DNA of 64,000 nt from NCBI GenBank assembly GCA_037130655.1, contig JBAXSP010000002.1, positions 77,125 through 141,124 on the forward strand. The letters run 5' to 3'. Under the pieces are notes generated by a model. The model was given only the letters and a program-made list of their open reading frames with translations. It did not search any database and was not told the DNA's origin. Source of the stretch: a bacterium. GTDB taxonomy: Bacteria > Patescibacteriota > Minisyncoccia > Phycocordibacterales > UBA9973. How positions within the stretch are numbered: the first letter of the stretch is position 1; each line of letters begins with the position of its first letter. This document shows, piece after piece, positions 418-12,665 of this stretch. The translations under genes were made by a program, and so were the position numbers.

Positions 418-813
418 TTATTTGCCGGGAATAAATTTCATTGAAATAGAATTCACACAGTGGCGGATGTTTTTGTCAGTCAGCCCTTCGCCAGTGAAGA
501 GGTGCCCCAAATGCCCACCACACTTCGCGCAAGTGATCTCTGTACGAAATCCGTCAGTATCAATACTCTTTTTTATCGCCCCAGGAATCTCATCATCAAA
601 ACTCGGCCAACCACAAGTCGTTTCAAATTTATAACTTGAATCATAGAGTGGTGCATTGCATTGTCGGCAGACATAGACACCAGTTTCTTTGGTGTTTACA
701 TATTCGCCAGTAAAAGGTAACTCTGTACCCTTATCAAGTATTATTCTTTCTTCTTCTTTTGTTAATTTGTTTTTTATTATATTACTCATATTTTTCTGGA
801 TACTTTTTGGCAT
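418..813 (-). CDS. msrB: peptide-methionine (R)-S-oxide reductase MsrB
   Basis: SelR motifs CGWPSF and [17 protein letters not shown], with four Zn-binding Cys. Confidence 0.9.
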
Positions 814-1776: not shown

Positions 1777-2700
1777 TTAAACTTTATTTTTTATAATATT
1801 TGAGGTAGATTCTGCTGTTTTTTCAACAATTCTTATTGCTTCTTTTACAGGTAAATCGGCACCTTGATCTGCAACATTTCTAGTAAATAAAGTATCAGCT
1901 ACTATCTGAGTAATAATTCCACGTTCGTGCTCGTTAGTTTCTGCATTATTTAAAACACCAAGATATGATTTTGCTACAACCTCTCTATTTTTATATTCCA
2001 TGTAGAGTTTTTTATAGTATGAATATTGAGCAACTATAAAATATAAAACAGTAAATCCAACCAGGTCTAAAGCTAGCATAGAGAGCATTTCTTGATATGT
2101 TAAATGAAATATAATCTTTGATAGCACAACAAAAATATCGTAAACAATTATTATTAAAAAAGCATATTTAGTTAGTTTAAGCCAGAAATCACGATCTTGT
2201 TTTAATCCATTTTTTCTCGCATCATCTTCTTTTGTTTTCAGTTCACCGTCTGCCATATTTGTATATGCTTCTGCTAATTTTTCCAGTGCTGATTCATTAA
2301 ATTTAAATATTCTAGTATCATAATCAGTCATCTTTTTTTCATAATCTACTAAGCGATTATTTATTGTATCAATAGAGGATTGCTTAGTTGGTAATTCAGT
2401 ATTTAAAATTTGAGAAATTTCATTTTGTTTTGAAATTAAATCATTCTGTATATTATTTATTATACCTTGATGCGTATTTAGCTTGTTTTCATGGTCATTA
2501 ATTTGATTTGAATTACTTTGCAATCTTTGTTCATGACCATTAAATTGAGTTTGTGTTTGATTTTGATTTGTGTTTATTTGAGATTCTAGCTGATCTATAT
2601 TTTGATAGACTTCTGCGTCCACATCTGCAATCCAAGAATTTACCCCTCCTTGATTTCTTGTATTCCCATTATGTTGATTAAATTGATTTCTTATTGACAT
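1777..2700 (-). CDS. hypothetical coiled-coil membrane protein (Q/N-rich N-terminus, 2 central TM)
   Basis: Long ORF with an N-terminal Q/N-rich heptad region and two hydrophobic helices (FLIIIVYDIFVVL, FTVLYFIVAQY). No recognisable catalytic motif. Divergent from the LexA-MTase gene. Confidence 0.5.
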   Translation of the reverse strand: MSIRNQFNQHNGNTRNQGGVNSWIADVDAEVYQNIDQLESQINTNQNQTQTQFNGHEQRLQSNSNQINDHENKLNTHQGIINNIQNDLISKQNEISQILNTELPTKQSSIDTINNRLVDYEKKMTDYDTRIFKFNESALEKLAEAYTNMADGELKTKEDDARKNGLKQDRDFWLKLTKYAFLIIIVYDIFVVLSKIIFHLTYQEMLSMLALDLVGFTVLYFIVAQYSYYKKLYMEYKNREVVAKSYLGVLNNAETNEHERGIITQIVADTLFTRNVADQGADLPVKEAIRIVEKTAESTSNIIKNKV

Positions 2701-2802
2701 GCATTTTCTATAATTAAATTTGTAATTGTGGATAACTGCTTAGACTTTCGGTTTTTGTTCGGTTATAATTAAATTGTAGCAAAATATATTTTATATAGCA
2801 AT

Positions 2803-4380
2803 ATGCAAACACTAACAAAAAAACAAAAAGATGTGCTAGATTTTATAAATAGTTATATTTCTGAAAACGGCATCTCTCCTACTATCGAGGAGACTCGTAA
2901 AAAATTAAAACTCAAAGCAGTTTCCACTGTGCACGAACACATAAATACATTAAAAGAAAAAGGCTATCTTTCAAAATCTCAAAACTTGGCACGGGGTCTA
3001 TCTCCTAAGAAAGAACTTGGATCAGTTATTGAAATTCCGATACTGGGAAGCATAAAAGCTGGATACCCGCTCGAAGCAATCGAAGAAAAAATAGGCTCAA
3101 TCTCTGTCGTAAACCCACAAATCAAATCATCTTCTGATTATTATGCACTCCGTGTTGTAGGTGACTCTATGATAGATGACGGAATTTTTGACGGAGATAT
3201 TGTAATTATCAAAAAACAATCTTCTGCAGAAAACGGACAAACTGTTGTTGCTATTATTGATGACAATGAAGCTACTTTAAAAAAAATATATAGAAAAGGG
3301 AAAGGTTACAATTTGGAAGCAAGAAATCCAAATATGCCGACACTATTTAGAACCGATGTAGAAGTTAGAGGTGTAGTAGTTCAAGTTATTAGTAATATCA
3401 ATAATGAGCCTGTAAAAAGCATTGAAAAGAAAAATAAACATGGATTTAATACCATTGATCTTTTTGCTGGTGTTGGAGGTATTCGTATAGGCTTTGAAAA
3501 TGCCGGATTTAAAACTGTCTTTGCAAACGATTTTGAGCCAAAATGTAAAGATACTTATGATTTAAATTTTAGAACCTCAAAGTTAATTGTTGAAGATATT
3601 CGAAAAATCGAAATTGACGATTTGCCTAAGTTTGATTTTTTATTAGGAGGATTTCCCTGTCAGGCTTTTTCTATTGCTGGATACAGAAAAGGTTTTGATG
3701 ACCCTAAAAATAGAGGCAATCTTTTTTTTGACATTGCAAAAATACTCGAAAAAAGAAAACCGGAAGGGTTTATGCTTGAAAATGTTAAAAATCTTAAAAG
3801 CCATGACGGAGGCAACACTTTTAGAATTATCGAAGAAACTTTGAAGGATTTAGATTACTATGTAAAATCTAAAGTTTTAAACACTATGGATTACGGAAAT
3901 GTTCCTCAAAATAGAGAACGTATTTATATTGTTGGGTTTAGAAATAAGGATTATTATGAACAATTTACATTTCCTGAACCAGTAAAACTTACAACAAAAA
4001 TTACTGATCTGCTTGAAAAAAATGTTGATCAAAAATATTACTATAATGATAAACCTCTTTTTGAAAAACTTAAAAAAGATGTAAAAGAAGAAGGCAAGGT
4101 ATATCAATGGCGTAGACAATATGTCAGAGAAAACAAAAGTGGAGTATGTCCAACACTTACAGCCAATATGGGTACTGGTGGACATAATGTACCTATCATT
4201 AAAGACAAGAAAGGTGTTCGCAAATTAACACCTCTTGAATGTTTTAGAATTCAAGGATTTCCTAAAGACTACATATTGCCGAAGATTTCTGATTCCGCTT
4301 TGTATAAACAAGCTGGAAACTCAGTAAGTGTACCTGTGATAGAAGCAGTATCGAAACAAATGATAAAAGTAATGAAATAG
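2803..4380 (+). CDS. LexA repressor (wHTH + S24 autopeptidase) fused to a C5-cytosine DNA methyltransferase
   Basis: The N-terminal ~200 aa align to LexA: the DNA-binding helix region is ISPTIEETRKKLKLKAVSTVHEHINTLKEKGYL, the Ala-Gly cleavage site is IKAGYPL, the catalytic Ser is in VVGDSMIDDG and the Lys in TLKKIYRKG. The C-terminal ~325 aa carry m5C MTase motifs I (DLFAGVGG), IV (GGFPCQAFS), VI (ENV), VIII (QNRERIYIVGF), IX (RKLTPLECFRIQGFP) and X (KQAGNSVSVPV). Confidence 0.85.
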   Translation: MQTLTKKQKDVLDFINSYISENGISPTIEETRKKLKLKAVSTVHEHINTLKEKGYLSKSQNLARGLSPKKELGSVIEIPILGSIKAGYPLEAIEEKIGSISVVNPQIKSSSDYYALRVVGDSMIDDGIFDGDIVIIKKQSSAENGQTVVAIIDDNEATLKKIYRKGKGYNLEARNPNMPTLFRTDVEVRGVVVQVISNINNEPVKSIEKKNKHGFNTIDLFAGVGGIRIGFENAGFKTVFANDFEPKCKDTYDLNFRTSKLIVEDIRKIEIDDLPKFDFLLGGFPCQAFSIAGYRKGFDDPKNRGNLFFDIAKILEKRKPEGFMLENVKNLKSHDGGNTFRIIEETLKDLDYYVKSKVLNTMDYGNVPQNRERIYIVGFRNKDYYEQFTFPEPVKLTTKITDLLEKNVDQKYYYNDKPLFEKLKKDVKEEGKVYQWRRQYVRENKSGVCPTLTANMGTGGHNVPIIKDKKGVRKLTPLECFRIQGFPKDYILPKISDSALYKQAGNSVSVPVIEAVSKQMIKVMK

Positions 4381-4381
4381 A

Positions 4382-4945
4382 TTACCAAACTTTTACATTT
4401 TTAGCTATTGGTTTTATTTTATTTTTTATAATTATATCTTTTTTAATACTAAATCGAGGTCTTTTGCTTTGTCCTTGTTGATCTTTCATTGTTTGGCCTT
4501 TATTAACCTTATTAGCGTATATAAATTTATTTGGAATTAAATAAACATTGAAAGTACCGTCTAACTTGCCTTCGTTATAAAAATCTAGAAAGTACAAATC
4601 ATCCCACTCAGTACGAGGTCCAAAAGAAGTTAAGTCTTCATTTATACTACTGGCTTTTATTTGTTCTCTTCTTTTTTTAGTAAGATTTACAGTATCAAAA
4701 GAAACTGTTCCTATTCCTTTTATTTTTCTTTGATAGCGTACTGATTTAGAAAAAACACAAAACATGCCTTCTGAGATAACTTCTGGAATATTAACCTTTC
4801 TCCCATATTTTTCTAAACCTGCATTGAGTACTTTCCAAATATCAAAAAGCTCTTTAAATATTTTACCGTCTTCCTTATCTAAAAAAGCAACCTCAATTTC
4901 AATATCATTACCGGCTAATTTAATTTTCTGATTCTGTAATTTCAT
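4382..4945 (-). CDS. hypothetical protein; candidate cognate type II restriction endonuclease (convergent with the MTase)
   Basis: 187-aa ORF tail-to-tail with the m5C MTase and 1 nt from its stop. No nuclease motif could be verified by eye. Confidence 0.35.
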   Translation of the reverse strand: MKLQNQKIKLAGNDIEIEVAFLDKEDGKIFKELFDIWKVLNAGLEKYGRKVNIPEVISEGMFCVFSKSVRYQRKIKGIGTVSFDTVNLTKKRREQIKASSINEDLTSFGPRTEWDDLYFLDFYNEGKLDGTFNVYLIPNKFIYANKVNKGQTMKDQQGQSKRPRFSIKKDIIIKNKIKPIAKNVKVW

Positions 4946-5035
4946 TAAGCTTATTTTATACTGTTAAATAATCTAGTCAAATAGTAAAATTCCAAAATAC
5001 AAGCTATTGTTTGGCAATAGTGGTACAGTAGAAGT

Positions 5036-5314
5036 ATGACCGACTTATTACAGATGCACGTATTCTTTTTTATCTCCTCTATTGGCTTCATTGTGGTGAC
5101 TATTTTGGTCAGTATTCTGATTGTCCGGATTATTCGTATCACGCACGCATTTGAGATCTTGCTCACCAAAGCAAGTGCCCAAATAGCGACAATCGGTGAC
5201 ACCACACAAGAGATGATAGACGATATTCACGACAGTACCTTTTTCAACTTCTTATTCAAAGGTCGTAGTAAACACACAAAAACAAAAGTCTCGCACCGTG
5301 CGAAAAAAGAATAA
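5036..5314 (+). CDS. small hypothetical membrane protein
   Basis: One strong TM helix (FFFISSIGFIVVTILVSILIV). An alternative minus-strand ORF overlaps it. Confidence 0.3.
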   Translation: MTDLLQMHVFFFISSIGFIVVTILVSILIVRIIRITHAFEILLTKASAQIATIGDTTQEMIDDIHDSTFFNFLFKGRSKHTKTKVSHRAKKE

Positions 5315-5334
5315 TAACTAATCAAGAATCATTT

Positions 5335-5715
5335 ATGGCAAAAACAAAGAAGACAACAGGAGCAAATCCACTCAAGATCATTGGCGTCGGAGTCGGTATC
5401 GCAGCACTATCACTCACCAGCTATCTATTGCTCGGAGAACACAGCAAGAAGAATCGCAAAGCAGTCAAAGCATGGGCATTCAAAATGAAAGCCGAAGTTG
5501 CTGAAAAATTGGAACACATGCAAGAAGTTACTCAACCAGTGTATGAAAAAGTCGTCCATGAAGTAGCGGACAAATACAAGAAGCTCAAAAACATTGATGC
5601 AGAAGAAGTTGAAACAGAATTGAACCATTTGAAAAAGGAATGGCACAAGCTGACAAAAAGTTCAAAATCCCCTGTTTCGAAAAAGAAGGTAGTGAAGAAA
5701 GTTTCAAAGAAATAA
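5335..5715 (+). CDS. hypothetical membrane-anchored lysine-rich protein
   Basis: N-terminal TM (IIGVGVGIAALSLTSYLLL), followed by a charged helical region and a K-rich tail. A terminator follows. Confidence 0.5.
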   Translation: MAKTKKTTGANPLKIIGVGVGIAALSLTSYLLLGEHSKKNRKAVKAWAFKMKAEVAEKLEHMQEVTQPVYEKVVHEVADKYKKLKNIDAEEVETELNHLKKEWHKLTKSSKSPVSKKKVVKKVSKK

Positions 5716-5723
5716 AATGCAAA

Positions 5724-5750
5724 ATAAAAACCGACAGTGTCGGTTTTTAT
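5724..5750 (+). terminator. rho-independent terminator
   Basis: Hairpin ccgacagtgtcgg followed by ttttt. Confidence 0.6.
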
Positions 5751-5921
5751 GTTGTTATTTCAAACACTTTTTGATCAGAGACAAGCTAGATTGAAGAAAT
5801 TGGTTTATCTAAATGGTCAGCGAGGCTGTGAATAATGATGGAAATGGTTTTTTCCACATGAGATTGACTATAAATAAAGGTATGTGGTATACTAAAACCA
5901 ATCAGAAGAAACCCTGACAAG

Positions 5922-6434
5922 TCAAGTGCTTGTCGGGGGTTTTTCATTTAAGACATCGTCACCAAAATCTGTAATAAAACTTAATTTTGTAAACTCTCTT
6001 CTTTTTATAACTCTTGAGCAAGATTTTGGATCAGTTGCAACAACCTTTACTTCAAGATTTTTTGAGTTTGCAAAGTCTAAAATATGAGCAAAGTCTCCGT
6101 CACCACTACATAAAATTATTTTACTCACAAAGTTGAAATCAACGTCGTATGTAATTCTGCGAGAAATCTCTACGTCGCAATTTGCCTTTTGCTTATTGTT
6201 TTCATTATATATCTCCTTAAAAACCAGTTCTACTCCAGAACCTTGTAATTCCAAAAAATAATTCTCCATACTTTTGAATCTACCGGTAAAATACACTACT
6301 TTTTCTGATCTATATTTATCTTTTAACTTATTAATTAGTCTAAATATATTAAAATCTAAATTTATATTTTTTGCAAATAAAATAATATTTGCAGCATCTA
6401 TATATATTATTATTTTATCTTTGCTGTTTTCCAT
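5922..6434 (-). CDS. NYN domain (LabA-like) putative RNase
   Basis: IYIDAANI ... CDVEI ... ILCSGDGDF acidic-residue pattern of NYN/PIN-like nucleases. Confidence 0.65.
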   Translation of the reverse strand: MENSKDKIIIYIDAANIILFAKNINLDFNIFRLINKLKDKYRSEKVVYFTGRFKSMENYFLELQGSGVELVFKEIYNENNKQKANCDVEISRRITYDVDFNFVSKIILCSGDGDFAHILDFANSKNLEVKVVATDPKSCSRVIKRREFTKLSFITDFGDDVLNEKPPTST

Positions 6435-6454
6435 ATGATATATTTTATCATGAA

Positions 6455-6712
6455 TTAATCTGAAATTTCAAAAATTTTTTGTTTCGAAATTTGACCAGAG
6501 ACGAGTGTGACACAAGACGGAGACGTTTCGAAATACTTCGCCAAGGCTTTGATGACGGCATTATTTGCCTTGCCATCTACTGGCGGTTCTTTGACTGAGA
6601 CTTTGTAGATCTCCATGTCTTTTTGCAATCCGAACAGAGCGAGTGTCGCCTGCGACACTCGCTCCACCTTTTCCTCTTTTGCATTTGCTTTAACCTTAAC
6701 GATGATTTTCAT
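6455..6712 (-). CDS. YggU/DUF167 family protein
   Basis: DGKANNAVIKALAKYF ... LVSGQISKQK matches the UPF0235 signature. Confidence 0.65.
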   Translation of the reverse strand: MKIIVKVKANAKEEKVERVSQATLALFGLQKDMEIYKVSVKEPPVDGKANNAVIKALAKYFETSPSCVTLVSGQISKQKIFEISD

Positions 6713-6715
6713 ACG

Positions 6716-7861
6716 TTATTTATCAGTAAAAATTTTTAGATATTCTTTATGAACATACAAAGAAGGGCGCGTACCTTCTGCTTTACGATGTAAAGAAAGA
6801 ATACCTGTATCAATAAGCTTATCAATAAATTTTAATGCCCCGGGTTTTGTCTGTCCAATCCAATCAGCAATAACAGTAGATGAGACAATAGGATCTTTAT
6901 ATAGCTTTTGAATTACTTTTACAGCAATATCAGAAGTTTTTTTACTGAATTGAGCAACAATAGCCAAATCACGATCACGTAATTTAGTTACTTTTTTTGA
7001 TATTTCTATTGCTTCCTCTGCTGTATCAATTACAGCATCAACAAAGAATTCAAGCCACGGGACAATATCACCATTATGATATTGATTGAGTTTTTGATAA
7101 TAAACTTTTTGATGTTTCTTAAAGTAGGAAGAGAGAAATAATGCTGGCAAGTCCAAATACTTATGATGAATTAAATAAAAAGTAATCATTAATCGTCCTG
7201 CGCGACCATTTCCATCCAAAAAAGGGTGGATTGTTTCAAATTGAGCATGCAAAAGACCCGCATCAATAATAGGATGCACAAAAGGAGTATGCATAAATTT
7301 TTCTAAATCATTCAATGGGGCATCTATTTCTTCTGGTGCAGGAGGAACAAAACTCGCATTATCTGGTCGAGTTCCACCAATCCAGTTTTGAGTTTTCCTA
7401 AATTCTCCAGGATCTGCAAAATGAGTAGAGCGTGCTTCTTGCATTAATTCTCGATGAAGTTCTCGGATAAAACGAAGTACGAAGGGAAATTCATCTTTTG
7501 CTAATCTATCTAATCCATAATTTAATGCTTGAACATAGTGAGAGATATCGTCGGCATCTGTCCCATCACGACTAGTTGGATCTGCCACATATTCAAATGC
7601 ATCAATCAAAGTTGCTTTTGTTCCCTCAATTTGTGAAGATGAGGTCGCGTCTTTCATCACATATGAACTTATAAAATAATCAACATCAGGAAGAAGAACC
7701 GTAATGCCAGAAAGTTTTCCTAAGAGAAATTGTGCATGATTCGATTTTTGAATTAATGCAACAGGAATAACATTCTTAATGTCATCTGAAGGAAAAGATA
7801 GCAGGGATATATATGTATACCCGTTTTTATGATTTTTTGTTGTTCCTATAATATTCTTCAT
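6716..7861 (-). CDS. Fic family protein (AMPylase/Doc-like)
   Basis: Canonical Fic motif HPFLDGNGRAGR. Confidence 0.85.
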   Translation of the reverse strand: MKNIIGTTKNHKNGYTYISLLSFPSDDIKNVIPVALIQKSNHAQFLLGKLSGITVLLPDVDYFISSYVMKDATSSSQIEGTKATLIDAFEYVADPTSRDGTDADDISHYVQALNYGLDRLAKDEFPFVLRFIRELHRELMQEARSTHFADPGEFRKTQNWIGGTRPDNASFVPPAPEEIDAPLNDLEKFMHTPFVHPIIDAGLLHAQFETIHPFLDGNGRAGRLMITFYLIHHKYLDLPALFLSSYFKKHQKVYYQKLNQYHNGDIVPWLEFFVDAVIDTAEEAIEISKKVTKLRDRDLAIVAQFSKKTSDIAVKVIQKLYKDPIVSSTVIADWIGQTKPGALKFIDKLIDTGILSLHRKAEGTRPSLYVHKEYLKIFTDK

Positions 7862-7872
7862 ATATCAGTTTG

Positions 7873-7942
7873 GTTTATACTAATTTGTTAGTGTAAACTA
7901 ATATAGCATTTTAGTTTACACTAGTCAACTAGCGTAAACTTA
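7873..7942. promoter_or_regulatory. operator-like array of GTAAAC/GTTTAC half-sites upstream of fic (palindrome 7889-7923)
   Basis: Inverted repeat tagtgtaaacta-N11-tagtttacacta, flanked by two more half-sites (gtttatactaa, gcgtaaactta). Confidence 0.45.
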
Positions 7943-8620
7943 CTTCACAAAATGAATGCTTTGGATTATTTGATCTACGATTTTTTCGTATGCTTCCGTA
8001 TTTTTGATATCTTCGTCATTGAGGGCCAAACTTGGATCATCCTGTTTGAGAGGTACCGCGTAAGAATCAATTTGATAAATATCTGTTCCATACGGAATGT
8101 AGATTGAGATCAAATCATAGTATCCGCCAGTGATTTGAGTGTTTGACTGGAAACGAACTTTGTACGCATTTATTCCATCGATAGTGATACTTTCTTTTGC
8201 AAGTGAGTCGTAAAAACTTTGTTTTTCAAATTCGGGAGAATTAATATCGAACCATTTTTCTATTGAGAGTTTTTTAGGATTTTCGTTTTTATCAAAGAAA
8301 AATCTTACTGGAGTATATTCTGTACTAGTTTTTTGTCCAGTAAATCGATCATTTCCGACTGATTTTATTTTTAAGTTTAAATTAATAGTATCTTTTTCAT
8401 CTACAAGAAATTCAAAATTATTTGAATAATTAAAAACCAAATTTCCTATTTGTTTTTCTTTATCTAAAACAATTTCTTCAGACTCTTTTTTAGTTTCTTG
8501 ATTTTGTACTTGTGGGACAAATACTGGTTGGACAGCGCGAGACATTTGTACATATTGCACATAAAACAACACTCCTGCGAGTACCAAAATAATACCTAAA
8601 ACGATAAGTAGTTTTTTCAT
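7940..8620 (-). CDS. hypothetical secreted/membrane-anchored protein
   Basis: N-terminal signal anchor (LLIVLGIILVLAGVLFY). Immediately downstream of the large surface protein gene. Confidence 0.45.
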   Translation of the reverse strand: MKKLLIVLGIILVLAGVLFYVQYVQMSRAVQPVFVPQVQNQETKKESEEIVLDKEKQIGNLVFNYSNNFEFLVDEKDTINLNLKIKSVGNDRFTGQKTSTEYTPVRFFFDKNENPKKLSIEKWFDINSPEFEKQSFYDSLAKESITIDGINAYKVRFQSNTQITGGYYDLISIYIPYGTDIYQIDSYAVPLKQDDPSLALNDEDIKNTEAYEKIVDQIIQSIHFVK

Positions 8621-12161: not shown

Positions 12162-12665
12162 TCATTTGTCAAGATAAGAGTCGAAATATATTGCGTGACA
12201 AGTATAACCACCAGGGTTCTTTTGTAAATAATCTTGGTGGCAGTCTTCGGCTTTGTACCATTTGGTAAATGGCTCAAGTGTCGTCACCACCGGATGATCC
12301 CAGCGAGCAGAATCATTCACAATTTTAATGAAATCTTCGGCTTGTTTTTTCTCTTCGTTGTTTTGATAAAAGATCGCTGAGCGATACGAAGTGCCAACAT
12401 CATTACCTTGTTGGTTGAGTGTCGTTGGATTGTGAATTTGAAAAAAGAAATCGAGTAATTTCCAAAATGAAGTAACATTTGCATCATAAACAATTTCTAA
12501 TGCTTCGGCGTGGCCACGGTGATTTTCATACGTAGGAGTATCGATTGTTCCACCAGTGTAACCCGCAGTGATATCAATAATTCCTGGTTGTGTACGAAAC
12601 AGTTCTTCGAGCCCCCAGAAACATCCGCCTGCCAAATATGCTTTTTTGATTTGTTGTTCGTTCAT
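12162..12665 (-). CDS. msrA: peptide-methionine (S)-S-oxide reductase MsrA
   Basis: Active-site motif GGCFWG at the N-terminus. Confidence 0.9.
   Translation of the reverse strand: MNEQQIKKAYLAGGCFWGLEELFRTQPGIIDITAGYTGGTIDTPTYENHRGHAEALEIVYDANVTSFWKLLDFFFQIHNPTTLNQQGNDVGTSYRSAIFYQNNEEKKQAEDFIKIVNDSARWDHPVVTTLEPFTKWYKAEDCHQDYLQKNPGGYTCHAIYFDSYLDK

Follow-up and report, generated by a model that had tools for sequence, protein, structure and literature searches.

Type II restriction-modification (R-M) systems are, to our knowledge, the main known defense of bacteria of the Candidate Phyla Radiation (CPR), which mostly lack CRISPR, and how such toxic modules stay safe during DNA repair is an open question. 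Several described systems are relevant here. Self-regulating DNA methyltransferases (MTases) such as M.SsoII, M.Ecl18kI, M.EcoRII, M.MspI, and M.ScrFIA carry an N-terminal helix-turn-helix (HTH) of about 70 residues, with neither a protease domain nor a link to RecA, and in SsoII this region also activates the divergent promoter of the restriction endonuclease (REase, R) gene. In classical C-R arrangements, a small, separate controller (C) protein is encoded directly 5' of R. In type I systems, self-restriction is alleviated through ClpXP degradation of the restriction subunit HsdR; we know of no comparable alleviation after DNA damage for type II systems and regard it as established for type I only. 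Here, we describe a locus in which these themes meet, in a 64,000-nucleotide stretch of DNA (the window) from a patescibacterium of the GTDB lineage Phycocordibacterales, UBA9973 (assembly GCA_037130655.1, contig JBAXSP010000002.1, positions 77,125 to 141,124, forward strand). One gene of the window encodes a LexA repressor that runs on in frame into a C5-cytosine (m5C) DNA methyltransferase, and this gene lies tail-to-tail with an endonuclease gene. Its parts are known singly (LexA, the m5C MTase, the Bsp6I-family REase, and, in relatives, the C protein), and the short-HTH self-regulating MTases are the closest functional precedent. Neither LexA-methyltransferase fusions nor LexA-linked R-M systems of CPR bacteria were found described in full-text literature searches, though an earlier mention is possible in a study of the Patescibacteria SOS network (Sanchez-Osuna, Barbe & Erill 2017, Environ Microbiol 19:3465).

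The fusion is a single open reading frame (ORF) in which LexA is followed by a flexible linker of about 15 residues and then by the MTase (Table 1). A preliminary description of the locus, made from the letters alone, had read the 525-residue product in the same way: a full LexA over roughly the first 200 residues, with a winged HTH (wHTH), an Ala-Gly bond, the Ser of GDSM, and the Lys of TLKK, joined to an m5C MTase complete with its motifs and with a target-recognition domain (TRD) between motifs VIII and IX. Profile searches bore this out. LexA_DNA_bind, Peptidase_S24, and DNA_methylase were all matched in Pfam, the N-terminal 199 residues scored 171.8 bits with the NCBIfam lexA equivalog TIGR00498 (curated cutoff, 110.95), and the C-terminal part scored 344.5 bits with the dcm model TIGR00675. 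The wHTH was aligned with residues 1 to 72 of structures 1LEA and 1JHH, and the AlphaFold2 (AF2) model places its helices at residues 6 to 22, 28 to 34, and 40 to 52. Alignment to the solved Escherichia coli and Thermotoga LexA proteins (structures 1JHH, 3JSO, and 3K2Z) located both the S24 dyad and the Ala-Gly cleavage site, whose possible absence had been the earlier caveat, and the LexA part is complete and apparently competent for cleavage. On the MTase side, the motif residues are invariant across a 34-sequence alignment. The AF2 model is moderate (mean predicted local distance difference test [pLDDT] score, 71) and served for domain boundaries and the linker alone; it contains three folded blocks, with pLDDT below 50 at residues 200 to 212, which indicates that this segment would be a flexible tether between domains that fold independently.

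Table 1. Positions of the lexA-MTase fusion gene, its promoter, the convergent endonuclease gene, and neighboring genes within the window
Feature	Position	Strand	Remarks
DnaA-box-like 9-mer TGTGGATAA	2727..2735	+	Exact reverse complement of the DnaA-box consensus; sole copy in the 64-kb window
-35 element TAGACT	2741-2746	+	
Direct repeat TTCGGTTTTTGTTCGG (TTCGG-N6-TTCGG, 11-bp period), candidate LexA/SOS box	2747..2762	+	Sole perfect copy in the window
-10 element TATAAT	2764-2769	+	
Predicted lexA-MTase promoter TAGACT-17-TATAAT	2741..2769	+	Best sigma-70-like match in 2600-5400, 10/12; architecture conserved at all related loci
lexA-MTase fusion gene	2803..4380	+	525 aa; frame kept in >100 independent sequences
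LexA winged-HTH DNA-binding domain, residues 1-65	2803..2997	+	Pfam PF01726 LexA_DNA_bind, 2e-16, full-length match
Peptidase S24 autoproteolytic/dimerization domain, residues 79-193	3037..3381	+	Pfam PF00717, 2e-27
Predicted scissile bond Ala86-Gly87	3058-3063	+	Codons read in the sequence; IKA/GYPL, equivalent to E. coli A84-G85
Predicted catalytic Ser122	3166-3168	+	GDSM aligned with E. coli Ser119
Predicted catalytic Lys160	3280-3282	+	ATLKK aligned with E. coli Lys156
Linker, residues 198-214, K/N/E-rich, poorly conserved	3394..3444	+	Identity among fusions 38-41%, versus 70-86% in the domains
C5-cytosine DNA methyltransferase domain, residues 215-522	3445..4368	+	Pfam PF00145 DNA_methylase, 3e-93, model positions 1-324/324
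MTase motifs I DLFAGVGG, IV GFPCQAFS, VI ENVKNL, VIII QNRERIY, X GNSVSVP	Within 3445..4368	+	All invariant columns
Predicted catalytic Cys286, motif IV (PCQ)	3658-3660	+	Codon read in the sequence
TRD, roughly residues 386-480, between motifs VIII and IX	3958-4242	+	
Bsp6I-family type II restriction endonuclease, 187 aa, tail-to-tail with the fusion gene	4382..4945	-	Pfam RE_Bsp6I, 56 bits, cutoff 25, E=5e-15
Predicted REase promoter TTGACT-16-TAAAAT	4953..4980	-	10/12 match; without the LexA repeat
MsrB	418-813	-	
NYN-domain protein	5922-6434	-	
Fic/DOC protein with Fic_N	6716-7861	-	
MsrA	12162-12665	-	

In a database search, all three Pfam domains were present in more than 120 protein clusters of 525 to 551 aa, with 77 to 84% identity over 100% of the query. 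They derive from NCBI, JGI, ENA, and Logan assemblies of Parcubacteria/Patescibacteria, and at 50% clustering the m5C fusion collapses to one representative. When each GTDB species was represented by one genome, the full fusion was present in about 28 species (63 to 83% identity). These are labelled Paceibacteria and Nomura-, Vogel-, Staskawicz-, Magasanik-, and Uhrbacteria, and one of the genomes is a closed 742-kb chromosome (L005). The Ala-Gly bond and the Ser and Lys residues are invariant in all 30 genome-derived sequences. Public annotations name these proteins either "transcriptional repressor LexA" or "DNA (cytosine-5)-methyltransferase 1," and no record among phage or plasmid records covers both halves together. 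Synteny was rejected as the cause of conservation: the genes that flank the module in the window almost never adjoin it elsewhere, and the conserved unit is therefore promoter-lexA-M plus R only. The halves could in principle have been two genes joined by an assembly, frameshift, or annotation error, and the preliminary description had named an interrupted frame as the observation that would undo its reading. The frame is continuous in the more than 120 clusters from the four sources, in the genomes of the roughly 28 species (the closed chromosome among them), and in 61 metagenome contigs among the matches listed; a frameshift or in-frame stop does occur in a few metagenome contigs (L221 and L281), as expected of sequencing errors or pseudogenes. 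We give such an error virtually no probability, and the sequences gathered here have already refuted it. The fusion is real and, as its conservation argues, under purifying selection.

The sequence 5' of the fusion gene suggests a link to the SOS response. The 100 nucleotides (nt) upstream of the start codon are strongly conserved at all related loci, with unrelated sequence beyond, and within this segment the direct repeat TTCGGTTTTTGTTCGG occupies the spacer between the -35 and -10 elements, which is the classical position for a repressor. The repeat is conserved 5' of all 27 lexA or lexA-fusion genes that were aligned. With a weight matrix built from these 27 sites, 517 kb of DNA from the clade contained no further copy. 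In 1.19 Mb, the matrix found one site 5' of a second lexA-fusion gene, one 5' of dinB, which encodes a Y-family polymerase, in L216, and otherwise only a few weak ones. TTCGG-N6-TTCGG stands 5' of dinB in seven of seven related genomes, at distances of 40 to 106 nt. One of the seven is L216; at the other six Patescibacteria dinB loci, it lies 40 to 65 nt 5' of the dinB start without exception. Five of these six have an unfused lexA (204 to 208 aa) just 5' of dinB, adjacent in three and separated by one small convergent ORF in two, and five of the six have a second copy of the repeat towards lexA. The same repeat also precedes unfused lexA in related Patescibacteria. A scan of the sequence collection with a 14-base operator pattern gave chance matches in viral contigs only. 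Given its recurrence at dinB in seven of seven genomes, TTCGG-N6-TTCGG is probably this lineage's LexA (SOS) box, and the LexA module of the fusion is probably an ordinary SOS-type repressor.

Two further observations concern this promoter. The DnaA-box-like 9-mer TGTGGATAA lies 10 to 14 nt 5' of the first TTCGG and holds the same position in L001 to L043; it is perfect at 22 of 31 loci selected by their protein and occurs elsewhere 11 times in 510 kb, which suggests that DnaA or another factor may co-regulate lexA in these bacteria. In the genomes with unfused lexA and dinB (L216, 7013-7907; L324, 912-1795; L322 and L325 to L327), the operator-bearing promoter lies about 850 nt 5' of lexA, and an ORF of 262 to 264 aa without a Pfam match is predicted on the opposite strand between the two. 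This gap could represent a long SOS-controlled leader, an antisense transcript, or a mis-called ORF.

To obtain a sample unbiased as to the fusion partner, we scanned metagenome contigs with a 24-base promoter pattern, which yielded at least 120 loci. The first ORF of usable length 3' of the promoter starts as LexA in 112 of 112 readable loci (120 among the matches listed); in L216, the LexA ORF lies about 850 nt further downstream. Among the matches listed, the partner is an m5C DNA_methylase domain at 61 loci (33 of them exactly 525 aa), a beta-class N6_N4_Mtase at 6, a gamma-class Eco57I/N6_Mtase at 6 (one of 888 aa with a TaqI_C domain), a Dam-like MethyltransfD12 at 6, and a permuted N6_N4 type at 2. 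No partner is present at 4 loci with an unfused LexA of about 200 aa, nor at 6 with a shortened, 125-aa LexA that has lost the cleavage site and Ser, so that fused genes number 81 and clearly unfused ones 4; promoter-selected loci outside these classes are interrupted by contig ends. L038 and L043, which had matched the LexA half alone and were considered as stand-alone LexA orthologs, were rejected as such: under the same promoter, they carry LexA fused to an Eco57I-type (NPPY) MTase (615 aa) and to an N6_N4 (DPPF...GSGTTG) MTase (549 aa), respectively. The same LexA is thus fused in frame to at least five types of DNA methyltransferase (m5C, D12, beta, gamma, and permuted).

In every class, the junction follows the natural LexA C terminus, (V/I)I(S/R)N, and leads into an unconserved linker of 15 to 45 aa, and the fused partner is always M, never R or C. 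When the LexA halves were clustered, the partner classes were intermixed: a gamma-class fusion is nested within the m5C fusions at about 70% LexA identity; the D12, permuted, and gamma fusions share 67 to 71% LexA identity; and the m5C fusions are spread over at least three LexA subclades. This intermixing implies that partners have been exchanged repeatedly.

Some loci depart from the simple module. In L211 (in reverse orientation, 2618-8043), and identically in L287, a single genome carries two complete modules one after the other. The first pairs LexA-D12 with an R of 264 aa and the second LexA-gamma with an R of 308 aa. The promoter of the second module contains the repeat variant ATCGG-N6-ATCGG, which may serve to insulate one repressor from the other. 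L298 (oriented, 1346-1951) encodes an unfused LexA of 201 aa whose stop codon is overlapped by 8 nt, in another frame, by a gamma-class (GNPPY) MTase ORF (1944-2996); it is possibly an evolutionary intermediate towards fusion or a fusion with a frameshift error. A second, distant LexA-like paralog of 189 to 196 aa (31 to 33% identical; S24 with AG, Ser, and Lys) lies 6 to 8 kb from the fusion in L008 (3305-3892, minus strand), L038 (17896-18462, minus strand), and L043 (1464-2030, minus strand), and none was found in the 64-kb window. Finally, shortened LexA proteins of 125 to 128 aa follow the same promoter in L213, L222, L245, L268, and L296. These retain an intact wHTH, have Ala-Tyr or Ala-Phe in place of Ala-Gly and His or Asn in place of Ser, and lack the rest of S24. 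The genes that come after them encode an HNH nuclease, a DUF2075-like ATPase, or a separate m5C MTase with a nuclease, and a Vsr-like gene lies just upstream of the shortened LexA in L213.

The fate of the cleavage residues bears on whether self-cleavage matters at all. LexA could serve the MTase merely as a handle for DNA binding and dimerization, as the small HTH does in M.SsoII, M.EcoRII, and M.ScrFIA, with autoproteolysis playing no part in R-M control. MTases with N-terminal autoregulatory DNA-binding regions are documented (references 169 to 172 in PMC3874152), and the operator described here does overlap the MTase's own promoter. A bare handle, however, is at odds with the intact Ala-Gly, Ser, and Lys of 115 of 116 sequences spanning all five fusion classes and LexA identities of 37 to 99%. 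Lineages that did lose cleavage (the 125-aa form, with AG changed to AY or AF and Ser to His) have kept neither the remainder of S24 nor a fused MTase, and the same box stands 5' of dinB, a classic SOS gene. We consider a role without cleavage quite unlikely.

We then examined what lies downstream of the fusions. In the window, a single nucleotide separates the stop codon of the fusion gene from that of the convergent ORF, as the preliminary description had noted in proposing this ORF as the cognate type II REase. It had also found no recognizable family for the 187-aa product. The first proposal is borne out, but the second statement is not: the product matches RE_Bsp6I in Pfam (Table 1) and shares 35% identity (E=1e-21) with a REase of the Bacillus altitudinis plasmid pTM1 that is annotated as a Bsp6I-family enzyme. 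For 92 fusion genes, the contig extends 450 nt or more beyond the gene; in 89 of these cases a convergent ORF comes next, and its stop lies -18 to +43 nt from the fusion stop. These ORFs fall into 17 unrelated clusters. The partners of m5C fusions include Bsp6I (24 loci, counting the window), NgoFVII-like, and PD-(D/E)XK_5 families; a permuted N6_N4 fusion is paired with MvaI/BcnI (3e-43), and beta-class fusions are paired with ScaI (5e-72), PvuII, or an Endonuclease VII-like HNH protein. Because the recognizable convergent ORFs belong to type II endonuclease families that fit the class of the fused MTase, we read these loci as complete R-M systems. The idea that half of the relatives carry an orphan methylase was rejected, since other families of convergent ORF replace the Bsp6I-like gene.

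In the m5C class, seven of the eight downstream ORF clusters go with one and the same TRD consensus, and TRD identity is 0.86 between fusions that share a REase family and 0.83 between those that do not. Fusion proteins that are 92 to 99% identical nonetheless precede different downstream families in four pairs of loci (L006/L219, L275/L277, L228/L253, and L292/L308). In these pairs, a Bsp6I-like gene and a 360-aa family without a Pfam match are interchanged while the TRD of the fusion stays the same, which implies a very recent replacement of the endonuclease under what appears to be one methylase specificity. As judged from the TRDs, endonucleases are replaced, often along with their C genes, next to a methylase whose specificity does not change.

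Such turnover invites an explanation in which nothing has been selected: the 3' flank of lexA would be a recombination hot spot for defense cassettes in compact genomes, in-frame joins would arise from overlapping stop and start codons, and LexA and the MTase would simply work side by side. The slot 3' of lexA is indeed highly variable, with REase families swapped between nearly identical fusions; other defense-like genes follow the shortened LexA variants; the unfused MTase ORF of L298 overlaps the lexA stop by 8 nt; and synteny outside the module is poor. A neutral origin fits less well with the 81 fused against 4 clearly unfused loci among the promoter-selected contigs, with the union of at least five unrelated MTase types to the same LexA C terminus in intact frames, and with two tandem fusions in one genome. 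Furthermore, the joined gene is always M and never R or C, and one stop codon would suffice for reversion, yet the frame is kept among sequences of 50 to 99% identity. We consider this explanation unlikely; recurrence across at least five methyltransferase types argues that the coupling was selected rather than accidental.

The MTase that neighbors the REase gene on pTM1 is 55% identical to the MTase half of the window's fusion, and its TRD core is near-identical. Given the Bsp6I-family REase partner and this TRD core, the predicted target is GCNGC, and the window module is probably a Bsp6I-type type II R-M system. The target of NgoFVII, presumably GCSGC as in the Pfam family description, is nested within GCNGC, which fits a GCNGC methylase that could shelter varied endonucleases. 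In the window, GCNGC occurs at 0.61 of expectation (z = -3.8). It is absent between positions 1191 and 5401, and methylation-sensitive control of the promoter was rejected for want of a site in that interval. N-terminal extensions of 170 to 250 aa on other m5C MTases contain neither LexA nor S24; two are fusions to a Bsp6I-type REase, and one is a fusion to RadC. The first two, P0214 (567 aa) and P0234 (539 aa), have RE_Bsp6I at the N terminus and DNA_methylase at the C terminus, with an MTase 42 to 45% identical to the window's, and tie its MTase lineage to Bsp6I-type enzymes. The third, P0163, is a RadC-JAB-MTase fusion.

Control of the endonuclease appears to be separate. The REase gene has a predicted promoter of its own, no LexA repeat was found in the REase upstream regions, and the intergenic space between the fusion and REase genes is too small for a terminator. 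In 33 related loci, a gene for a 75-aa, C-like controller of the HTH_3 family ends a few nucleotides 5' of the REase start, and 14 of the 24 Bsp6I-type loci have this arrangement; no such ORF was found 5' of the REase gene (upstream of position 4945) in the window. In L005 (12154-12381, minus strand), 2 nt separate the end of the C-like gene from the start codon of the REase. C-like genes accompany several REase families, and C-R units have seemingly been exchanged as cassettes. Replacement of the C protein by LexA was rejected, given the 33 related loci that carry the C-like gene 5' of R; from this C-R arrangement, LexA would therefore control the M side, alongside the usual regulation of R-M systems and not as a substitute for it. 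The preliminary description had proposed that the fusion would couple either methylation or derepression of the R-M operon to DNA damage. With the operator in its own promoter and the same box at dinB in seven of seven genomes, an SOS-responsive M gene is a reasonable inference. Derepression of the operon is not, as the operator is found on the M side only and the REase has its own, repeat-free promoter.

On balance, and without great confidence, we favor the reading that the fusion is an autorepressed methylase, cleavable through activated RecA (RecA*), that ties R-M modification to DNA damage. The fusion protein would bind the repeat as a LexA dimer and repress its own synthesis, keeping methylase low and self-limited. 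DNA damage or phage replication would generate RecA-single-stranded DNA filaments, which would trigger self-cleavage at Ala86-Gly87 and thereby release the DNA-binding domain. Once the promoter is derepressed in this way, newly made protein would be processed to a free S24-methyltransferase fragment, while the stronger lexA-M transcription might read antisense into the REase gene. The net effect would be SOS-coupled hyper-methylation, a type II analogue of restriction alleviation that protects unmethylated DNA arising from repair and recombination. In cells that lack the repressor, the same promoter would give an M-first burst.

The opposite outcome is the main rival. By the logic of abortive infection, SOS induction would lead to suicide: the fusion would be cleaved and its fragments degraded, methylation would lapse on new DNA, and a stable REase would cut host and phage DNA alike. 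The architecture fits this equally well, and the R promoter, being independent and free of the LexA box, is not co-regulated. In E. coli, LexA cleavage fragments are substrates of ClpXP and Lon, so that SOS could lower methylase activity. R-M systems are also established as toxin-antitoxin-like modules that induce SOS when unbalanced (PMC3874152). Cleavage would, however, also derepress the promoter and yield more of the M-bearing polypeptide, the MTase would remain on a folded S24 domain and not on an exposed degron, and a response that makes ordinary damage lethal looks costly for a gene kept in more than 100 lineages. We regard damage-triggered killing as rather unlikely; hyper-methylation with an M-first burst is the most likely outcome, although sequence data do not separate the two.

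Several points besides fragment degradation weigh against an SOS-linked methylase. The dinB regulon evidence comes from sister lineages with unfused LexA and not from the fusion-bearing genomes, and no recA was found in the 64-kb window or in any related locus fetched. In some genomes, the distant LexA-like paralog could be the principal or an alternative SOS regulator. A C protein already controls R in many relatives, where an extra layer is not obviously needed, and the proposed antisense effect on the REase gene is pure inference. The depletion of GCNGC is modest, and it lends weak support to the predicted target because AANTT and CTNAG are equally depleted.

A wider reading joins these elements: in a large part of the Patescibacteria, the SOS repressor itself would have taken on the role of modification subunit in type II R-M systems, its autoproteolysis would be a switch that senses damage or infection and resets the balance of methylase to endonuclease (towards restriction alleviation or suicide), and the 3' end of lexA would be a docking site for methylases of any class and their endonucleases. 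We advance this combination tentatively, as somewhat less likely than not. As a corollary, were it true, each repressor at an SOS box would carry a methyltransferase, and SOS promoters might be epigenetically marked.

In the window, no integrase, transposase, or phage gene flanks the module, whose neighbors are ordinary chromosomal genes (Table 1). The findings suggest a previously undescribed link between the DNA damage response and restriction-modification. With the methylase physically part of LexA, the proposed coupling of modification to the SOS signal is directly testable, and it addresses the question of how toxic R-M modules are kept safe during DNA repair. The fusion is abundant and modular across methylase classes, and it joins two well-studied systems in an unexpected way. 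The analysis also provides a candidate SOS box for these uncultivated lineages and a case in which one methylase specificity seems to shelter a changing set of unrelated endonucleases. As a natural, modular design of self-cleaving regulator and enzyme, the fusion could be reused in synthetic biology.

Set beside described systems, the locus resembles each in part. With LexA proteins of the TIGR00498 family, the fusion shares the wHTH and the S24 domain with its Ala-Gly bond and Ser/Lys dyad; its promoter contains a candidate operator, which in relatives recurs as a candidate box at dinB. It differs in running on for 325 residues into a DNA methyltransferase and in the tail-to-tail placement of its gene with a restriction endonuclease gene. 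The candidate operator is a direct repeat and not a palindrome. The alphaproteobacterial LexA box GTTC-N7-GTTC resembles this 11-bp-period repeat, a likeness that is a lead and not a test. With the Bsp6I R-M system, as represented by the pTM1 homolog, the module has in common the REase family, an MTase with a near-identical TRD core, and the adjacency of R and M, with GCNGC as its predicted target; on pTM1, however, R and M are co-directional and separate, whereas the window has them in convergent orientation, with LexA joined to M. Like the self-regulating MTases of the M.SsoII group, the fusion has an N-terminal DNA-binding module that is predicted to repress the MTase's own promoter. It is not a member of that group, whose short HTH acts on divergent R and M promoters: here, a LexA of 200 residues brings a protease domain along, the convergent R gene has a promoter free of the repeat, and the operator is a candidate SOS box. 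The many relatives with a 75-aa HTH_3 gene directly 5' of R connect the family to C-protein systems, to which the window locus, having no C gene, does not belong: here, LexA is covalently part of M and would act on the M side, in contrast to a small regulator encoded 5' of R. With type I restriction alleviation, finally, the module shares a proposed outcome, namely, less self-restriction when damage and repair create unmodified sites. The lever there is proteolysis of the restriction subunit, whereas here it would be SOS derepression together with cleavage of the LexA-methylase.

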